Source: Patescibacteria group bacterium
GTDB lineage: Bacteria; Patescibacteriota; Minisyncoccia; Minisyncoccales; PWPS01
Assembly (NCBI GenBank): GCA_051745165.1
Contig: JBNJDU010000005.1
Span: 1 to 32,296 of the forward strand
Direction: 5' to 3'
DNA: 32,296 nt
Position numbers and translations under genes: made by a program. This document shows positions 24,004 through 32,296 of the stretch, in pieces (position 1 is the first letter of the stretch; the number at the start of each line of letters is the position of its first letter). The notes beneath the pieces are model-generated. The model had not been told where the DNA came from, ran no database searches, and saw only the letters and a list, made by a program, of their open reading frames with translations.

Positions 24004-24540
24004 ATGAGATCTCAGCAATGTGAAAAAGATCACGGGTTGTTGGAAAAAATGATTGAACTGGATAGAAAAGATTTAGACAAACACTTAAAAGAATGTTCTG
24101 TTTGTGCTAGCTCATTAAAAAAGGCTTACCGTCTTTATAAGGATAAAAAGAAAGAGCCTATTCTTAATAGTTTCCCTCCATATGACTCAACTAGAACTTT
24201 GACTGAGTTTTTAGACGCTTGGGTTATTTCTTTAGTTTCTAAAAGAGATAGATTACATCACTACGCCACAGAAATAAATGCTAAAATGGCTAATGAAAAT
24301 GTAAGAACATTAACAATTGGCTTAATTCAAGAATTAATAAAGTCATTGAAAGCTAAAACCAAGCAGGAAAGATTAGACAGGTATAAATCTTTATCTGAAA
24401 TAATAGAAATACTTGATGGCGAGTTTTTTCAAGAAGAATTTAAGCTTTTCCTTGGACATTCAAAGGAAGAGCTAATAGAAATAATAGAAGATCATTTATT
24501 GATTGAGGAGGATAAAGACAAATTATTACCCCGGAAGTAA
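24004..24540 (+). CDS. Hypothetical protein with N-terminal zf-HC2/ZAS-like HxxxCxxC motif
   Basis: SD AAGGAGG, HLKECSVC near the N-terminus, downstream hairpin CCCGG/CCGGG plus T run. Confidence 0.65.
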   Translation: MRSQQCEKDHGLLEKMIELDRKDLDKHLKECSVCASSLKKAYRLYKDKKKEPILNSFPPYDSTRTLTEFLDAWVISLVSKRDRLHHYATEINAKMANENVRTLTIGLIQELIKSLKAKTKQERLDRYKSLSEIIEILDGEFFQEEFKLFLGHSKEELIEIIEDHLLIEEDKDKLLPRK

Positions 24541-25545: not shown

Positions 25546-25573
25546 GGATTCTTCACCTACGGCTCAGAATGAC
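25546..25573. repeat. REP-like unit GATTCTTC...CTCAGAATGAC
   Basis: Same unit as at 30628-30662 and 30716-30747. Confidence 0.8.
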
Positions 25574-25641
25574 GGATTAATCTGAAGCGAAGATACTCTA
25601 TTTGAAGAACTCCGCGTAACCGATTCAGTAACTAACCTGAA

Positions 25642-25784
25642 GTGAGGGATTGGGGTTGAAAGAAGTTCGCGGAGGCAATTTGGCACGGCCTCGGCTTCGC
25701 CGAGCAAATTGTCGAGCGCACAACCCCCGAATCGCCGCCGGCGATTCTTGAGGGGTGGTTCTTTCAACCCCAACCCGAGCGCAC
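25642..25784 (+). repeat. Structured dispersed element, copy B (preceded by a 5' fragment at ~25578-25618)
   Basis: GGATTGGGGTTGAAAGAA/TTCTTTCAACCCCAACCC closing stem with the same internal arms as copies A and C. Confidence 0.85.
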
Positions 25785-25807
25785 TAAAAAAAGAGCCCAC
25801 CCTGTTT

Positions 25808-26500
25808 CTAGGTGAGCTTTATTTTTGATGTATCTTTCAAACTCTTAATTTTTCTTAAATCATTTTGAGCTTGTCGTAAACTAGTTCTTTTTCTAGGGTA
25901 AGCATCGTTTGCCTCTTTTAACCATTCAATCAATTGATTCCGTGCTTTTTTACCTGTTGGTGGATTTCCCCAAGGTAATCTAATTCTGTCTTCTTCAAAG
26001 AAAAAATAAAACATTTTCCTTTTAACTTCTCCAACAGTCTTACCGTTGAGATTGTTAAAAATATCGTTCATTTTCTTAACTTCTTCCTCAGTCGTTTTTT
26101 CACAATCCAAAAGACCTTGCTTAATTCCTTGCATGCGAAGTAAAAATCTTTCATTTTCAGCCGATTTAAAGAAATCTTCAGGTCTAGGGAAGTGCAATGA
26201 ACTGAAATGAGGCAGTTGAAATTTTGCATAACTAGTTAGTATATGCTTAAGACCTTGAATGGTCCAATCACTCCCTGCTCTAACTAAAAATGGATTGTTT
26301 TTAGCTTCGTCAGGTGCTATCTTAACTAGCTTGTGTGCAGTATAAGAAAAATTATTTCTTTTTCTTCCATTAAAAATTACTATTCTGTGTTTGTCTATTT
26401 TTCCACTGCATTTAATGTCTCTAAACCCCATCTCTTCTAATGCTTGTCTAATCTCTTCTAGAACTATAGTCTCTTCTTTTATAAAGAACGAAAGATACAT
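25808..26500 (-). CDS. Hypothetical protein (orphan)
   Basis: Long ORF. ATG 26500 (MYLSFF) follows SD AAGGAGG, so it is preferred over GTG 26518. No recognisable motif. Confidence 0.65.
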   Translation of the reverse strand: MYLSFFIKEETIVLEEIRQALEEMGFRDIKCSGKIDKHRIVIFNGRKRNNFSYTAHKLVKIAPDEAKNNPFLVRAGSDWTIQGLKHILTSYAKFQLPHFSSLHFPRPEDFFKSAENERFLLRMQGIKQGLLDCEKTTEEEVKKMNDIFNNLNGKTVGEVKRKMFYFFFEEDRIRLPWGNPPTGKKARNQLIEWLKEANDAYPRKRTSLRQAQNDLRKIKSLKDTSKIKLT

Positions 26501-26580
26501 ACTAGCACCCTCCTTCACTTATTTTTTGATCCGCTTAAAGACCAATCAAAACTCATTAGCTTTAAACGAGCTTTAAGCCC

Positions 26581-28298: not shown

Positions 28299-29363
28299 TT
28301 AACTTATATCTTTAACAAATTCTTTTAATACTTGATAGTACCTTTCTAAGTCTTCTTTGCTTATCCATTCATTTGGCCCATGATGGCCACCACCCTTGGG
28401 TTTAACGACTAAAGTTGGAATCTTTTTCGAAGCAAAGAATCGCGCATCAGAAGAACCGTGAGAAAAAGCGGTTCTTCTTTTTCTTCCATACCTATCTTTA
28501 GCAATTTGAAAAAACTTTTTAAAATATTTATTGTTTACATTCCACTTAAAGCTAGGGCCTGTGACTACTTTTTCTAGTTCAATGTAATCTTTTTTAATCG
28601 AATCAATATTTTTCATCACTTCTTCTACATTTGTTTCTGGAACAAATCTAATATCAACAAGAGCTTCGGCAAATTCGGGCACTTGATTTCCCGCTTTCCC
28701 GCTATGTATTTTAGTAAGTGTAGCTGTAGTTCTATAATTCTCATCAGTATCAGGATATAACTCTTTAAGATCATTAATAAATAAAAGCAATCTTTCGGCT
28801 GCATTTTTGCCTTGCCATGGCCTACTAGCATGAGCCGCCTTGCCTTGAGCTTTTAGTTTTAAGTGAATAACTCCTTTTGCACCTTCTTCTAATTCCCAAT
28901 TTGTTCTTCCGTCAGGTAAAAAACAAAAATCCCCGATATATCCTTTTTCTACTAAACTTCCAACTCCATTAAAACCACCCAGCTCTTCATCGCTAGTAAT
29001 CATTACTCCTAAATCAAGATTTGATAATTCATCTTTTAATTCTTTTAGAAGTTTTATATAGCAAGCAATAGCAAATTTCATGTCGTAAACTCCGCGCCCA
29101 ATATATTTTCCTTCTTTTTCTTTTAAGCTAAATAAATCTTCCGAGCCTGGCACCACATCAATATGCGCTTGCAAAAAAACTTTGGGTTTTTTGGTTTTTT
29201 TAGTCGTTAAAATTAAAGAAGAGAAATCTTCACTCTTTTCCCATTTTTTATATAACTGCAAATCAGAAAGTTCTTCTTCTACATATTCTAAAGCTTTCTT
29301 ATTCTCCTTTTTATCCTTAGAAACCGTTTTAAAGCCTATTAATTTTTCTAATATTTTTTTCAT
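28299..29363 (-). CDS. M20 family metallopeptidase/deacylase (ArgE/DapE-like)
   Basis: AHIDVVP, GRGVYDMK, DEELGG, GKAAHASRPWQGKNA, SSDARFF, HHGPNEW. Confidence 0.92.
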   Translation of the reverse strand: MKKILEKLIGFKTVSKDKKENKKALEYVEEELSDLQLYKKWEKSEDFSSLILTTKKTKKPKVFLQAHIDVVPGSEDLFSLKEKEGKYIGRGVYDMKFAIACYIKLLKELKDELSNLDLGVMITSDEELGGFNGVGSLVEKGYIGDFCFLPDGRTNWELEEGAKGVIHLKLKAQGKAAHASRPWQGKNAAERLLLFINDLKELYPDTDENYRTTATLTKIHSGKAGNQVPEFAEALVDIRFVPETNVEEVMKNIDSIKKDYIELEKVVTGPSFKWNVNNKYFKKFFQIAKDRYGRKRRTAFSHGSSDARFFASKKIPTLVVKPKGGGHHGPNEWISKEDLERYYQVLKEFVKDIS

Positions 29364-29391
29364 AATTACTTTTATTTTAATAAGTTTAAAG

Positions 29392-29421
29392 AAAAAAGAA
29401 AAGGGCCAATTTTTGGCCCTT
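29392..29421 (-). terminator. Intrinsic terminator after the ATP-grasp gene
   Basis: AAGGGCCAA/TTGGCCCTT stem followed on the minus strand by TTCTTTTTT. Confidence 0.7.
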
Positions 29422-29425
29422 ATTT

Positions 29426-30538
29426 TTATCCTTGTTCCATTATAGTTCCGGCAAAACCAGCTCCCTGACTAACATTTATCATTCCACGCTGCCAATAACT
29501 TTCATACTTTTCTACTCTGGCAATTGTATACAAATACTCTATATTACCATCTTCCACCCAAAAAGATGGATTTAAATCAAAACTATAAAATTCATCATTT
29601 ATCTTAATTTTGGGTAGCCATTTTGCCTTGCAAAGTCCGTAACTTCCTTGTTGAACCTTTTCTTTTAATACCTCTTCCCATTGTTTGTTACTAACTTTGC
29701 GGCCGAAAACAATCTCCTTTCCTCCGTGTCCACGCAGAGGTTTTAAAACATAATTATCTTTATTTAGTCCCTTAACTTTTGCTAAATCATCAACTGATTC
29801 CAAAATAAAATCATCCGCTGCTGGGTTTAAAACAAACCTTTTATTTCCAACATCTTCTTTAGACTCTCCAGGAATAGTATTAAAAACTAAAACTGAGTCA
29901 TTTTGTGCCTCTAAAAGCCACTTTTGAAAACGTTGAGGAAATTCACTAAACTTACCAAATCGAACATCACCCCAGCGATATAAAGGCGAGGGCCGATTAC
30001 GGACAATCTCATCTTTATCCATTGGAGTAACATTTAAAACCTGATTCATGTCTTCAAGATAGTCTGCGCCCCACTCTTCTTTTACCTTGCCCGAACCCCA
30101 AGCAAGATAAATTTTTTCAGTAGAAAAAGAATTCTTTATTCTTTTTGCTAATCTCTGTGTGGCTGAAGGTTGCATTTCACTTAGTTTAGGGAAGGCTTTG
30201 TGCTGAGCAGAAACTGCTGGAGCACATTCAGGAGTATGGACATTAGCTTCATAAACTCCACGAATAGAAAGCGACCCTAGATCATATTCATTTCCATTTG
30301 ATTGAGCAACCTCCCTGGTTAATCCAGGAATTAAATCAAAGCGAATATGACCAACAAAATGATCAGTCCGCACTTGATTCCAAATTCTATTCCAGGTTTG
30401 AGTGGCAAAATCAATTATTCTGTCTTTTTCTCGCTTAGAAATAGTAAAACTACCGTTTAGGACTCTAACCCTTTCACCTGCTAGAGAAAAATCATCATTT
30501 TCAGCAAAAACATTTTTACTTAAAAGAACAAGTTTCAT
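29426..30538 (-). CDS. Circularly permuted ATP-grasp amide ligase (glutathionylspermidine synthase-like / CP-ATPgrasp), paralog 1
   Basis: N-terminal RFD and YEAN..TPE, then GNK, VLKPLRGHGGKEIVFG, DLNPSF, ARV, INVSQGAG. Motif order matches circularly permuted ATP-grasps. Confidence 0.75.
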   Translation of the reverse strand: MKLVLLSKNVFAENDDFSLAGERVRVLNGSFTISKREKDRIIDFATQTWNRIWNQVRTDHFVGHIRFDLIPGLTREVAQSNGNEYDLGSLSIRGVYEANVHTPECAPAVSAQHKAFPKLSEMQPSATQRLAKRIKNSFSTEKIYLAWGSGKVKEEWGADYLEDMNQVLNVTPMDKDEIVRNRPSPLYRWGDVRFGKFSEFPQRFQKWLLEAQNDSVLVFNTIPGESKEDVGNKRFVLNPAADDFILESVDDLAKVKGLNKDNYVLKPLRGHGGKEIVFGRKVSNKQWEEVLKEKVQQGSYGLCKAKWLPKIKINDEFYSFDLNPSFWVEDGNIEYLYTIARVEKYESYWQRGMINVSQGAGFAGTIMEQG

Positions 30539-30610
30539 AATATCCCTCCTTTTTTATTTAGGGTTTTATCCCTATTTCTCTCTTCAAATAATTTAAAAAG
30601 AGAAATAGAA
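30520..30610. repeat. 91-bp direct repeat covering leader, SD and first 6 codons, copy 1
   Basis: Matches 32206-32296 with one mismatch. Confidence 0.95.
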
Positions 30611-30627
30611 ATAAAATTTATTGTAAA

Positions 30628-30747
30628 GGATTCTTCGGTCGTTTCACTTCCTCAGAATGACATACTTTTGTCATCCTGAGCGAAGCGAAGGATCTCATCT
30701 ATAACACTTTTCGAAGAGATTCTTCGGCCTACGGCCTCAGAATGACA
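30628..30747. repeat. Cluster of three alternating REP-like units (GATTCTTC...CTCAGAATGACA / TGTCATCCTGAG...GAAGGATC)
   Basis: Units at 30628-30662, 30669-30696 (inverted) and 30716-30747. Confidence 0.85.
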
Positions 30748-30763
30748 AGTAGAGCAACCTTTC

Positions 30764-30900
30764 GCGAGGGTTGTGGTGGGAAGAAGTCCGCGGAGGCGGT
30801 TTGGCATGTTCTTGATTTATCAAGAAAACCGCCGAGCGAACAAGACCCGAATCGTCGCTAGCGATTCTTGAGGTCTGGTTTTTCCCATCCACATCCGAGC
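30764..30900 (+). repeat. Structured dispersed element, copy C
   Basis: Same architecture as copies A and B with different stem sequences. Confidence 0.85.
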
Positions 30901-30932
30901 AAAAAGAAAACCTCCCGATCTCTCGGGAGGTT
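30901..30932 (-). terminator. Terminator (3:4 helix) of the Leu/Ile leader
   Basis: AACCTCCCGA-GAGA-TCGGGAGGTT followed by TTCTTTTT. Confidence 0.85.
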
Positions 30933-30954
30933 CCAAATTCTTTTTTATTTTAAA

Positions 30955-31041
30955 TTAGATTTTTGCAAACTGGAAACCTCCCGAATTTAGTTCGGTAAGA
31001 AGTAAAATAATAAGAATTAAATTTTCTCGGAAAGTTTCCAT
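30955..31041 (-). CDS. 28-aa Leu/Ile-rich leader peptide (or small hydrophobic peptide)
   Basis: METFRENLILIILLLTELNSGGFQFAKI, between a TTGACA-16-TATAAT promoter (31095-31068) and a terminator. Confidence 0.65.
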   Translation of the reverse strand: METFRENLILIILLLTELNSGGFQFAKI

Positions 31042-31111
31042 AAATATGTTCAATTTTTATTACTACTATTATATTTATAATTTTTTGTTTGTCAAGAAAA
31101 AAAGAGAGCTT

Positions 31112-32224
31112 TTAGCTCTCTTTAACTTCTTTTAACGTTCCTCCGTAGCCTCCTCCTTGAGCTACATTAATAGTTTTTCGAGAAAAGTAACTTTCCCAAG
31201 GTTCGACTCTGACTAGGCTATATAAATATGTCAGATCTTTTCCATTTGCAAAAAATGAAGGCAATAAGTCCATAGTAATAGACAAGTTGTTAACTTCTAT
31301 TTTAGGAAGTAATATTTTCTCAAAAATTCCATAATCTCCCTTTTTAGTTGCTTTTCTTAAAATTATTCTCCACTTATCTTTACTTACATCTTCTCCAAAT
31401 AAAATCCCCTTTCCGGAAGCTCCTCTCAACGGTTTTAAGACATAATTGTCCTTGTCAACGAGCATTGCTTTTTCCAACTTGTGATTGCTATTTAAGACAA
31501 TATCTTCCTCAGAAGCTAAAAGTTTTTTGTTGGCTATATCGGCATTTCTACTTTCTGGAATTGTATTTATCACTCTTGAATAATTATTTTGTGCCTTGTA
31601 GAGCCACTTCTGAAAATCATCACTATACTCATTAAATTCTCCTTTAAAATCAACATCTCCCCACCGCCACAAAGTAGAAGGGGGATTTTTTTGAGCATCT
31701 GCCCATTTATTTACTGATACATTCAAGCCATTAGCAGACAGTTCATCAAGAAAGGCACTGGCCCAACTGCTCTTAGCTAAATTAGAACCTCTAACCATCG
31801 TTAATTTGCTGTCATAAGTCTCTAATAGCTTTTTAGCTAGCTGTTTACCAGCAGAAGGAGTATAGCTACTAATTTCAGGAAACTTCCGTCTATAAAGCGC
31901 ATCACAAGCTACTCCCTCTGGGCTATGTGTGTTTACTTCGTAAATTCCTTTAATAGATATTTCTCCCAGTCTTATTTCTGATCCCTTTCGTCTCGCTTTA
32001 CCTTTGAACTTTGGAATAAAATCAAAGCGAACGTGCCCTTCAAAATAATCCATACCTGATTTCTCAAAAATATTTTTCCAAATATCTTCTGCCTTTTTTA
32101 TGACTTTCTTCTTTTCTTTCTTTGTTATTTCTAAATATCCTTGAAGAGCATTAATTTTTTGATCACCAACAGAAAAACCTTCTCTTTTCTCGAAAAGCTT
32201 ATCTTTTAAAAGAACAAGTTTCAT
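31112..32224 (-). CDS. Circularly permuted ATP-grasp amide ligase, paralog 2
   Basis: RFD, YEVNTHSPEG, ANK, VLKPLRGASGKGILFG, DLLPSF, VRV, INVAQGGG. Same length as, and colinear with, 29426-30538. Confidence 0.75.
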   Translation of the reverse strand: MKLVLLKDKLFEKREGFSVGDQKINALQGYLEITKKEKKKVIKKAEDIWKNIFEKSGMDYFEGHVRFDFIPKFKGKARRKGSEIRLGEISIKGIYEVNTHSPEGVACDALYRRKFPEISSYTPSAGKQLAKKLLETYDSKLTMVRGSNLAKSSWASAFLDELSANGLNVSVNKWADAQKNPPSTLWRWGDVDFKGEFNEYSDDFQKWLYKAQNNYSRVINTIPESRNADIANKKLLASEEDIVLNSNHKLEKAMLVDKDNYVLKPLRGASGKGILFGEDVSKDKWRIILRKATKKGDYGIFEKILLPKIEVNNLSITMDLLPSFFANGKDLTYLYSLVRVEPWESYFSRKTINVAQGGGYGGTLKEVKES

Positions 32225-32296
32225 AATATCCCTCCTTTTTTATTTAGGGTTTTATCCCTATTTCTCTCTTTAAATAATTTAAAAAGAGAAATAGAA
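32206..32296. repeat. 91-bp direct repeat, copy 2 (runs to the window edge)
   Basis: Matches 30520-30610 with one mismatch. Confidence 0.95.

Follow-up and report, generated by a model that had tools for sequence, protein, structure and literature searches.

In the LysX/ArgX-LysW-LysK and PuuA/PuuD systems an ATP-dependent amide ligase is paired with a hydrolase, of the M20 family in LysK and of the C26 family in PuuD, that removes the acyl or gamma-glutamyl group. In Staphylococcus, LdmS, an L-Asp-L-Met ATP-grasp ligase, shares an operon with the M20 peptidase HmrA; the operon is controlled by an S-box or by CodY/CymR, and its induction on Met shortage is described by the authors as a paradox (PMC9486568). 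Here we describe a ligase/M20 system, to which LdmS/HmrA is the closest system-level parallel, in the genome of a Patescibacteria group bacterium. The window, by which we mean the whole stretch of DNA analyzed, is the entire contig C5 of its assembly (32,296 nt), and it carries two ATP-grasp paralogs, ligase 1 and ligase 2, followed on the same strand by an M20 metallohydrolase. Bacteria of the Candidate Phyla Radiation (CPR), or Patescibacteria, are thought to be reliant on hosts or surroundings for amino acids, and to our knowledge almost nothing is known of how they sense or manage amino-acid shortage.

The best explanation of this locus, and the one that we favor on balance, is that it encodes amino-acid-specific amide ligases that are induced by shortage of an amino acid and work with a deacylase. 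The original prediction, made from the letters of the DNA, had described two 370-residue paralogs on one strand followed by an M20 peptidase, and open reading frames (ORFs), BLASTP and Pfam agree on this arrangement, with the two ligases 39% identical across 370 residues (E 1e-92, BLASTP). The assembly comprises 623,552 bases in 29 contigs and is rated 100% complete with 0.55% contamination; the G+C content of the window is about 0.33. The features, in the order in which they are read on the minus strand and with protein lengths in amino acids (aa), are as follows.

32225..32296, minus strand: untranslated 5′ end of ligase 1, with a palindromic hairpin, a small hairpin, an A-rich stretch and a strong Shine-Dalgarno sequence (inverted repeat I10, direct repeat D1).
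31112..32224, minus strand: ligase 1, the promoter-distal ATP-grasp paralog, of the Phe-leader class, 370 aa (ORF; family profile E 2.4e-160).
31101..31123, minus strand: terminator-like hairpin ending ligase 1 (10 pairs, then a T-run).
31068..31095, minus strand: promoter-like site TTGACA-16-TATAAT ahead of the ligase 2 leader (12/12 consensus positions).
30955..31041, minus strand: leader ORF METFRENLILIILLLTELNSGGFQFAKI, 28 codons, with 8 consecutive Leu/Ile codons at 30997-31020.
31025-31037, minus strand: putative attenuator segment 1, within the leader ORF.
30975-30985, minus strand: putative attenuator segment 2, within the leader ORF.
30898..30934, minus strand: segments 3 and 4, forming an intrinsic terminator, GGAACCTCCCGA-GAGA-TCGGGAGGTTTT plus a T-run (12-pair hairpin).
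30618..30900, no strand assigned: GC-rich structured repeat between the attenuator and the start of ligase 2, outside the system (repeat families D2 and D4).
30539..30616, minus strand: untranslated 5′ end of ligase 2, with hairpins and a Shine-Dalgarno sequence as before ligase 1 (I4, D1).
29426..30538, minus strand: ligase 2, the M20-proximal ATP-grasp paralog, of the Leu/Ile/Val-leader class, 370 aa (ORF; AlphaFold2 model; Foldseek).
29391..29421, minus strand: terminator-like hairpin between ligase 2 and M20 (hairpin 29421-29401, then a T-run; terminator scan).
28299..29363, minus strand: M20 (ArgE/DapE-type) metallohydrolase, 354 aa (Peptidase_M20 and M20_dimer).

The 28-codon, Leu/Ile-rich ORF that had been proposed to lie between the paralogs is real (30955-31041, minus strand) and is presumably translated, and the region that contains it has, as judged from its sequence, the anatomy of a classical leader-peptide attenuator. 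In the predicted fold of the free leader RNA, segment 1, at the start of the ORF, pairs with segment 2, which spans the codons for NSGGF, and the terminator is formed (-43.8 kcal/mol, z -4.07). Because segment 2 is a near copy of the 3′ arm of the terminator it can also pair with the 5′ arm and so act as an antiterminator, and the predicted energies of these duplexes are -16.6 kcal/mol for 2:3 vs -16.5 kcal/mol for 3:4. When a ribosome footprint is masked with its A site at the first Leu codon, the predicted fold flips to the 2:3 antiterminator. Such a leader would respond by inducing the gene when the amino acid runs short and not when it is in surplus. The Rfam Phe_leader model (RF01859) gives a weak full-length match to 30902-31028 (33 bits, E 0.014), but with a gathering score of 55 the window leader is not a member of that family, and an Rfam search of the window at gathering scores returned one tRNA only.

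Comparison with related systems makes it very probable that attenuators stand upstream of the ligases. Eight loci were taken from species genomes and 19 from metagenomes, the latter by a scan with a 27-sequence alignment and with the ligase hits at each locus drawn from a six-frame profile search; removal of duplicates gave 19 systems, window included, and one weak partial hit (L028) was dropped. Among the 30 full-length ligase genes analyzed in these systems, 29 are each preceded by a short leader ORF and a switchable terminator, and the contig of the 30th (L022) starts too near the gene to show a leader. A promoter-like box is present at most of the 29 leaders. Nine leaders contain Phe runs (for example KFFFFFFR and EFFFFFFFA) and nine contain Leu/Ile/Val runs, and the link to branched-chain amino acids that had been drawn from the single Leu/Ile leader of the window is supported. 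In the three-gene arrays (L005 and L023) the leaders come in the order Phe, Leu (LLLLLVL, NLLLLS) and Ile/Val (IIVINII, VIINIVEII), and in all seven of the two-gene systems with both leaders visible a Phe-type ligase is followed by a Leu/Ile/Val-type ligase and then by the hydrolase. The leaders of single-gene systems are of Leu/Ile/Val type (L002), Leu-rich (L015), mixed (LFILIL, LFFLII, AFILLFVI) or aromatic-hydrophobic (WYYLLFLFI). It would follow from these sequences that the two ligase genes of the window are separate transcription units with different amino-acid inputs, Phe for the one and Leu/Ile/Val for the other.

The pairing scheme recurs along with the codon runs. For the 26 of 29 leaders to which a script assigned scores, the leader ORF contains segment 2 in every case, the 2:3 duplex has a z score below -3 relative to shuffled sequences in 23, and in 18 the z score of the 1:2 duplex is below -2. 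From one lineage to another the stems covary, with CCTCCCGA/TCGGGAGG in some and CTCCCAGC/GCTGGGAG in others, and the tail of the leader peptide shifts with them, being SGGF where the stem is TCGGGAGG and LGD where it is GCTGGGAG. Since the peptide tail changes along with the stem sequence, conservation is at the RNA level. The suggestion that the 28-residue product might be a substrate peptide is not sustained, as the ORF is instead a sensor, in which the conserved C-terminal part keeps in step with the RNA stems and alters when they alter, and the same pattern of RNA-level conservation led us to reject the small ORFs as peptide substrates in general.

Ligase 1 shows no leader in the window because contig C5 ends 72 nt upstream of the gene. 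The original prediction had looked to the sequence at the right of the window for further information; that sequence is absent from contig C5, of which the window is the whole, but by synteny it continues at the 3′ end of contig C3. There we find, in order, a prephenate dehydratase gene, a promoter-like box, a leader (MEIVPKKENQFFGFFFTELNSGGFQFAKI), the same terminator, and a GC-rich repeat, which is the arrangement seen in the syntenic loci L001, L006 and L007. Contig C5 thus appears to continue into the 3′ end of contig C3.

Leader type follows ligase ancestry. In a quick maximum-likelihood tree of 30 ligases, those with Phe leaders fall into a clade of seven that includes ligase 1 (Shimodaira-Hasegawa-like approximate likelihood-ratio test, SH-aLRT, 100) and a second clade of two (support 100), and support is 98 for the pair with Leu leaders and 83 for the pair with Ile/Val leaders. 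The leader labels require nine changes on this tree, as compared with a mean of 17.9 for shuffled labels (none of 200 shuffles was as low), and because the rows of the tree are related this result describes clustering and not independent events. Residues by which the Phe and Leu/Ile/Val classes can be told apart adjoin catalytic motifs, among them A108C and A111L after P103-E104, V152A before K153, N323L within D-L-x-P, and F362Y, which belongs to the Gly-rich C-terminal loop; these positions fit a changed substrate pocket, though they are not proof of one. We consider it likely that amino-acid specificity differs by ligase paralog.

The ligases themselves are almost certainly of the circularly permuted ATP-grasp fold, on the evidence of a structural model. 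The AlphaFold2 model of ligase 2, built with an alignment of 11 relatives, has a pLDDT of 89.4 and a pTM of 0.89, and a Foldseek search of the PDB with it places solely members of the circularly permuted ATP-grasp branch at ranks 1-45 (probability 1.0, query-normalized TM 0.41-0.57). Among the matches listed, which are 7-14% identical, are human, yeast and plant (homo)glutathione synthetases, 3n6x (a putative glutathionylspermidine synthase), the fungal ligase Cp1B (9cjn), E. coli GspS, YgiC, YjfC and trypanothione synthetase, and TM is 0.45-0.57 for the glutathione synthetases, 3n6x, Cp1B, GspS and YgiC/YjfC; one of five lower matches listed, at rank 47, is 3k1t, a putative gamma-glutamylcysteine synthetase. 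The motifs that had been noted in the window (R66-x-D68, E97-x-N99, K233, K266-P267..G270..G273, D321-L-x-P324 and N355-V-x-Q-G359-x-G361) occur in both ligases and are invariant or nearly so among relatives, with R66, D68, E97, N99, K233, K266, G273, D321, R341 and N355 invariant in 57 family members. By motif pattern and the published description of Cp1B, and not by residue superposition, R-x-D and E-x-N are equated with R139/D141 and E163/N165 of Cp1B, where Ala substitution is reported to abolish or strongly reduce activity (PMC12568646). The ligases would thereby be expected to catalyze ATP-dependent carboxylate-amine ligation.

Sequence searches place the family less precisely. A profile of the family against solved chains finds Cp1B as the best match (E 6.8e-5, in the P-loop stretch) and E. 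coli GshB next (E 0.02), while a solved-structure search with a single ligase sequence gave chance-level matches only (NtdA N-domain, E 0.03). All Pfam matches to the ligases are below cut-off (CP_ATPgrasp_1 14.7 bits with a cut-off of 23.1; GSH-S_ATP 15.6 with a cut-off of 23; GSP_synth not listed), and NCBIfam glutathione synthase models score 14-15 bits vs cut-offs of 272-408, so that with sub-threshold matches only we dropped the use of a Pfam or NCBIfam family name. Twenty-five remote profile hits were scanned against Pfam with GSP_synth, CP_ATPgrasp_1 and CP_ATPgrasp_2 as the families of reference. One or more of these is the sole family above cut-off in five hits, and stands above cut-off alongside another ATP-grasp-type family in four; in six only a different family exceeds its cut-off (four of these have a sub-threshold match to a reference family), in seven the match to a reference family is solely below cut-off, and three have no such match. 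The circularly permuted ATP-grasp fold that had been predicted is thus borne out by the model, Foldseek, the invariant residues and the remote profile hits, whereas formal membership in a named Pfam family was not found. One remote homolog of the ATP-binding stretch (P0084, 3684 aa) lies inside a giant protein resembling nonribosomal peptide synthetases (NRPS), with condensation, PP-binding and thioesterase domains.

The family is rare, and so far it is found only in CPR/Patescibacteria-type genomes, where it is a patchy accessory trait. A word-seeded search found 12 family proteins among 5.8 billion clusters, and an exhaustive profile search of 1.84 billion found 102 representatives at E up to 1e-3, 58 of them at E up to 1e-30; the named records are all from CPR metagenome-assembled genomes labelled Nealsonbacteria or Saccharibacteria. 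Among 401 sampled genomes of the phylum there is a match at E up to 1e-20 in the window's own genome only, and among 201 genomes of the order three have a match at 1e-5, the own genome included. The Atlas cluster that contains the ligase has 88 members and is unnamed, and in a neighboring Atlas cluster 10% of members carry AnkG_N.

The gene that follows the last ligase encodes an amide hydrolase in 19 of 19 systems. The conserved co-occurrence of ligase and M20 that had been anticipated is seen in 15, and in the other four a different amide hydrolase occupies the same place, FGase (PF05013) in three (L022, L025 and L026) and a class-I GATase/Peptidase_C26 protein in one (L015). The gap between ligase and hydrolase is just 13-15 nt in L015 and L025, and the neighborhoods otherwise differ, with VWA, ComEA-like, ClpB, superoxide dismutase, RtcA and pyruvate kinase genes among them. 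The M20 protein of the window, the sole M20 in the genome, matches PF01546 (Peptidase_M20, E 3e-31) and PF07687 (M20_dimer, E 1.8e-20) and scores far below the cut-offs of all DapE, ArgE and LysK equivalogs, its best NCBIfam match being TIGR01910 (185.8 bits vs a cut-off of 217.6); its closest solved chain is 2rb7, an uncharacterized M20. DapE, ArgE and LysK were rejected as identities for it, the corresponding pathways not being found in the genome: with dihydrodipicolinate synthase, diaminopimelate epimerase and amino-acid kinase not found in a genome rated 100% complete, there is no DapE/ArgE/LysK role for it to fill. M20 enzymes such as ArgE, DapE, LysK and CPG2, like FGase and the C26 gamma-glutamyl hydrolases, cleave an N-acyl or gamma-glutamyl amide and so free an alpha-amino acid, and we lean toward the view that the hydrolase acts on the ligase product.

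The M20 start lacks a Shine-Dalgarno sequence, and in most loci a -10-like box lies 6-13 nt before the ATG (the gap at 29364-29425 in the window; L001-L024). These features suggest that the predicted M20 mRNA is leaderless or near-leaderless and starts right after the ligase terminator, and M20 is probably its own transcription unit.

The organism looks peptide-fed, without de novo synthesis of Phe, Leu, Ile or Val. Neither a class I/II aminotransferase nor chorismate synthase was found in the genome rated 100% complete. A broad 2-oxoacid:acceptor oxidoreductase is encoded in the window, and the transporters of the genome include one APC permease and one Opp/Dpp-type binding protein; LIVCS and a Liv-type ATP-binding cassette (ABC) permease were not found in the transporter survey, which is not decisive for a role in amino-acid capture. 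The sole class IV aminotransferase (L029, 6842-9468, on contig C11 of the same genome) has about equal branched-chain and D-amino-acid scores and is followed by a PepF-like M3 oligoendopeptidase. On contig C3 (L009, 16640-17476) a lone prephenate dehydratase with an ACT domain lies directly upstream of the Phe leader, and the genes upstream of it, which we had considered as candidates for the shikimate pathway, are actually aminoacyl-tRNA synthetases, an M16 peptidase, an AI-2E transporter and a methylase.

With shortage-induced ligases and a deacylase as the preferred reading, the proposed mechanism would run as follows. When the charged tRNA for the leader run is scarce (Phe for the distal ligase, Leu/Ile/Val for the proximal one), the ribosome would stall and mask segment 1; segment 2 would then pair with segment 3, no terminator would form, and the ligase would be produced. 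The ligase would use ATP to phosphorylate a carboxylate, which it would then attach to its cognate hydrophobic amino acid at the alpha-amino group, and the adjacent hydrolase (M20 here, FGase or the C26 amidotransferase-like enzyme elsewhere) would re-cleave the N-acyl or dipeptide product. As to purpose, we offer only tentatively that the system serves to capture, retain or buffer hydrophobic amino acids that are scarce and that the organism cannot make, a role favored because the sensed amino acids share hydrophobicity only and no pathway. More doubtful is a fuller version in which the ligase-hydrolase pairs constitute an ATP-driven conjugate-and-release cycle that holds the most membrane-permeant amino acids inside peptide-importing, ultra-small cells, with one dedicated ligase per amino acid (Phe, Leu, Ile, Val; elsewhere Tyr/Trp/Met), each under its own leader switch. 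A bolder variant would see in the pair the final step, otherwise missing, of a non-canonical route that starts from scavenged 2-oxo acids. For the products that had been raised in the original prediction (an osmolyte, a storage compound or a protein tag) there is no indication.

Several observations weigh against this reading. Since many of the loci come from related genomes, the counts lack independence; the strict stem/T-run rule overlooked three leaders, whose hairpins were judged by eye; the 1:2 pairing is weak in eight of the 26 scored leaders; and masking of the ribosome footprint at later codons of the window leader gives no flip, so that steric exclusion has to be assumed there. The terminator between ligase and M20, raised as a caveat in the original prediction, was found by our scan and is conserved in relatives, a hairpin and T-run following the ligase in 13 of the 14 M20 loci examined, and with this terminator and its own -10-like box at M20, co-regulation is not demonstrated for the M20 type. 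No match to the ligases at 1e-5 was found in the same-genus genome or in four same-family genomes, from which it follows that the system is dispensable. The amino acid could be either the amine or the acyl partner of the ligation. It is also paradoxical that shortage should induce an enzyme that consumes the scarce amino acid, and if the hydrolase were constitutive and the ligase inducible, the two would burn ATP in a cycle.

In an alternative explanation, the substrate of the ligases would be not the finished amino acid but a precursor of it (for example arogenate, a D-amino acid, or a 2-oxo or 2-hydroxy acid), with other enzymes converting the conjugate and the hydrolase then freeing Phe or Leu/Ile/Val, as in the protect-modify-deprotect logic of ArgE, DapE, LysX/LysK and PuuA/PuuD. 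Induction on shortage is the usual logic of biosynthetic genes, and this explanation would also give a place to the lone ACT-domain prephenate dehydratase that immediately precedes the Phe leader in this genome and in L001, L006 and L007, to the class I/II aminotransferase that lies ahead of the Phe leader of L023, to the class IV (branched-chain-aminotransferase-like or D-amino-acid) aminotransferase and 2-oxoacid:acceptor oxidoreductase that the genome retains, and to the acceptance of non-amino-acid carboxylates by Cp1B-type ligases (PMC12568646). We nevertheless think it rather unlikely: the cluster contains no conserved modifying enzyme, prephenate dehydratase is present in only four of the 19 systems, all of them close relatives, chorismate synthase and a class I/II aminotransferase were not found in the 100%-complete genome, and because Phe and the branched-chain amino acids have no common precursor the hydrophobic side chain is the feature that they share. 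Unlikely too is a lack of any functional link between the ligases and M20, in which case the ligases would build a needed or secreted pseudopeptide, such as an inhibitor like E-64 or a component of the wall or envelope, with shortage raising them to sustain flux in the manner of aminoacyl-tRNA synthetase genes and M20 being a general dipeptidase that is nearby by history. Cp1B does couple Ile, Leu, Val, Met or Phe to an acid warhead (PMC12568646), M20 is apparently a separate unit behind a terminator, and a remote homolog of the ligase domain lies within the NRPS-like protein P0084; yet a hydrolase directly follows the last ligase in 19 of 19 systems with varied neighborhoods, its position kept even as its family is swapped between M20, FGase and C26, and no conserved warhead-making or export genes are nearby.

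Small ORFs directly upstream of ATP-grasp genes are also the arrangement of graspetide clusters, which raises the idea of peptide or protein tagging, or of a ribosomally synthesized and post-translationally modified peptide (RiPP), with the small ORFs as precursors or a protein C-terminus as acceptor, the ATP-grasp enzyme modifying and M20 trimming, an idea near to the tagging proposed in the original prediction. ATP-grasp enzymes of the tubulin tyrosine ligase (TTL) and RimK types do extend protein C-termini, and two remote homologs have weak, sub-threshold TTL matches. Behind each small ORF, nevertheless, stands a strong terminator with a 5′ arm that is able to pair with the 3′ part of the ORF, the conserved peptide tail changes with the stem sequence (SGGF vs LGD), the variable part consists of a homopolymer-like run of codons, different from paralog to paralog, as a sensor requires, the Thr/Ser/Lys plus Asp/Glu pattern of graspetide cores is lacking, and the fold is of the small-molecule glutathione-synthetase/GspS type and not of the graspetide-ligase type; we regard this origin for the locus as very improbable. 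The best structural matches, being glutathione synthetases, GspS and YgiC/YjfC, could be taken literally, to indicate true glutathione synthetase, GspS or YgiC-like function in the synthesis of low-molecular-weight thiols or polyamine conjugates, but identity to these matches is only 7-14%, no Pfam or NCBIfam model of the glutathione synthetase, GspS or YgiC-type families matches at cut-off, and regulation by Phe and Leu/Ile/Val codons with matching paralog classes would be out of place in such metabolism, which leaves this function scarcely credible.

Other aspects of the locus deserve mention. The 5′ regions of the two ligases, comprising the untranslated end and about 110 nt of coding sequence (repeat D1, with its partner stretch at ligase 2 at 30426-30610), are 77% identical as DNA, compared with 39% for the proteins, and both contain a palindrome with 18-nt arms, a small hairpin, and then an A-rich stretch and AAGGAGGG. 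The small hairpin just ahead of the Shine-Dalgarno sequence is retained in relatives with a differing sequence. The alike 5′ regions could reflect gene conversion or a conserved 5′ element. Copies of the GC-rich structured repeat lie directly behind terminators in this AT-rich genome, at 30618-30900 and 25564-25800 in the window and at 17660-17821 in L009, the end of contig C3, where the assembly probably broke; the D2/D4 copy at 25647-25780 lies within the second of these stretches, and comparable repeat inserts occupy the same position in L001 and L006. Elsewhere in the window, an ORF of 236 aa at 25808-26518 (minus strand) is without a Pfam or NCBIfam family and keeps its position in L001, L006 and L007, and one of 178 aa at 24004-24540 (plus strand) is without a Pfam family and keeps its position in L006; both adjoin pyruvate kinase/TatD in related loci.

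The attenuators have a practical consequence in that each labels its member of an orphan family with an amino acid, so that a 'hypothetical protein' gains a testable predicted substrate class. That the ligases are repeatedly paired with amide hydrolases of three unrelated kinds suggests a module of general use in which ligation is followed by release, paralleling LdmS/HmrA. A conjugate-and-release cycle, if true, would amount to a mode of amino-acid homeostasis that has not been described so far, and would explain the LdmS/HmrA paradox. Once their substrates are found, the ligases could serve as amino-acid-specific enzymes for biocatalysis, and could explain hydrophobic amino-acid buffering in minimal cells.

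In its comparison with known systems, the locus resembles LdmS/HmrA (PMC9486568) in having an ATP-grasp amino-acid ligase beside an M20 enzyme and in being raised, by prediction here, when the amino acid that is the amine substrate (Met in LdmS) is short; it differs in its sensor, a riboswitch or repressor there and a leader peptide here, and in the amino acids involved. No LdmS chain is among the solved-structure sequence hits (E up to 10) or the Foldseek matches listed, the presence of LdmS in the searched sets being unconfirmed, and by their absence from those hits the ligases look analogous to LdmS and not orthologous.

Among ligases, the Cp1B/AnkG-type fungal enzymes of the E-64 pathway (9cjn) share the R-x-D/E-x-N catalytic residues, and Cp1B couples a carboxylate to Ile, Leu, Val, Met and Phe, which is the set of amino acids sensed, by prediction, by the leaders here (PMC12568646). 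The sequence alignment with Cp1B nonetheless covers only 35 residues, structural identity is 11%, the lengths are about 500 vs 370 aa, and Cp1B belongs to fungal secondary metabolism, with oxygenase and ANL ligase partners and without a hydrolase partner or attenuator. Eukaryotic-type glutathione synthetase, GspS, YgiC, YjfC and CP_ATPgrasp_1/2 have the fold and domain order of the ligases here, and GSP_synth and CP_ATPgrasp members are tied to the family through the remote profile hits. The alpha-E and transglutaminase proteins, which the original prediction stated to be usual CP_ATPgrasp partners, are not in the window.

The hydrolase families of LysK and PuuD, M20 and C26, are alternative partners in the systems described here, but LysX and PuuA are of other ligase folds or families, and in contrast to the LysX and PuuA pairs there is no carrier protein or modifying enzyme in the cluster and no amino-acid kinase in the genome. 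The enterobacterial attenuators (pheA/pheST, leu and ilv) likewise combine a promoter, a short ORF with a codon run, exclusive 1:2, 2:3 and 3:4 pairings and a terminator; they control biosynthetic operons or synthetases, whereas those described here control, as predicted, orphan ligases in a CPR lineage. Our literature search, which did not cover subscription journals, found no published description of this ligase/leader/hydrolase system. The parts are of known kinds (an ATP-grasp ligase, an M20 hydrolase and an attenuator), and it is their combination, the ligase family and the lineage that are new.

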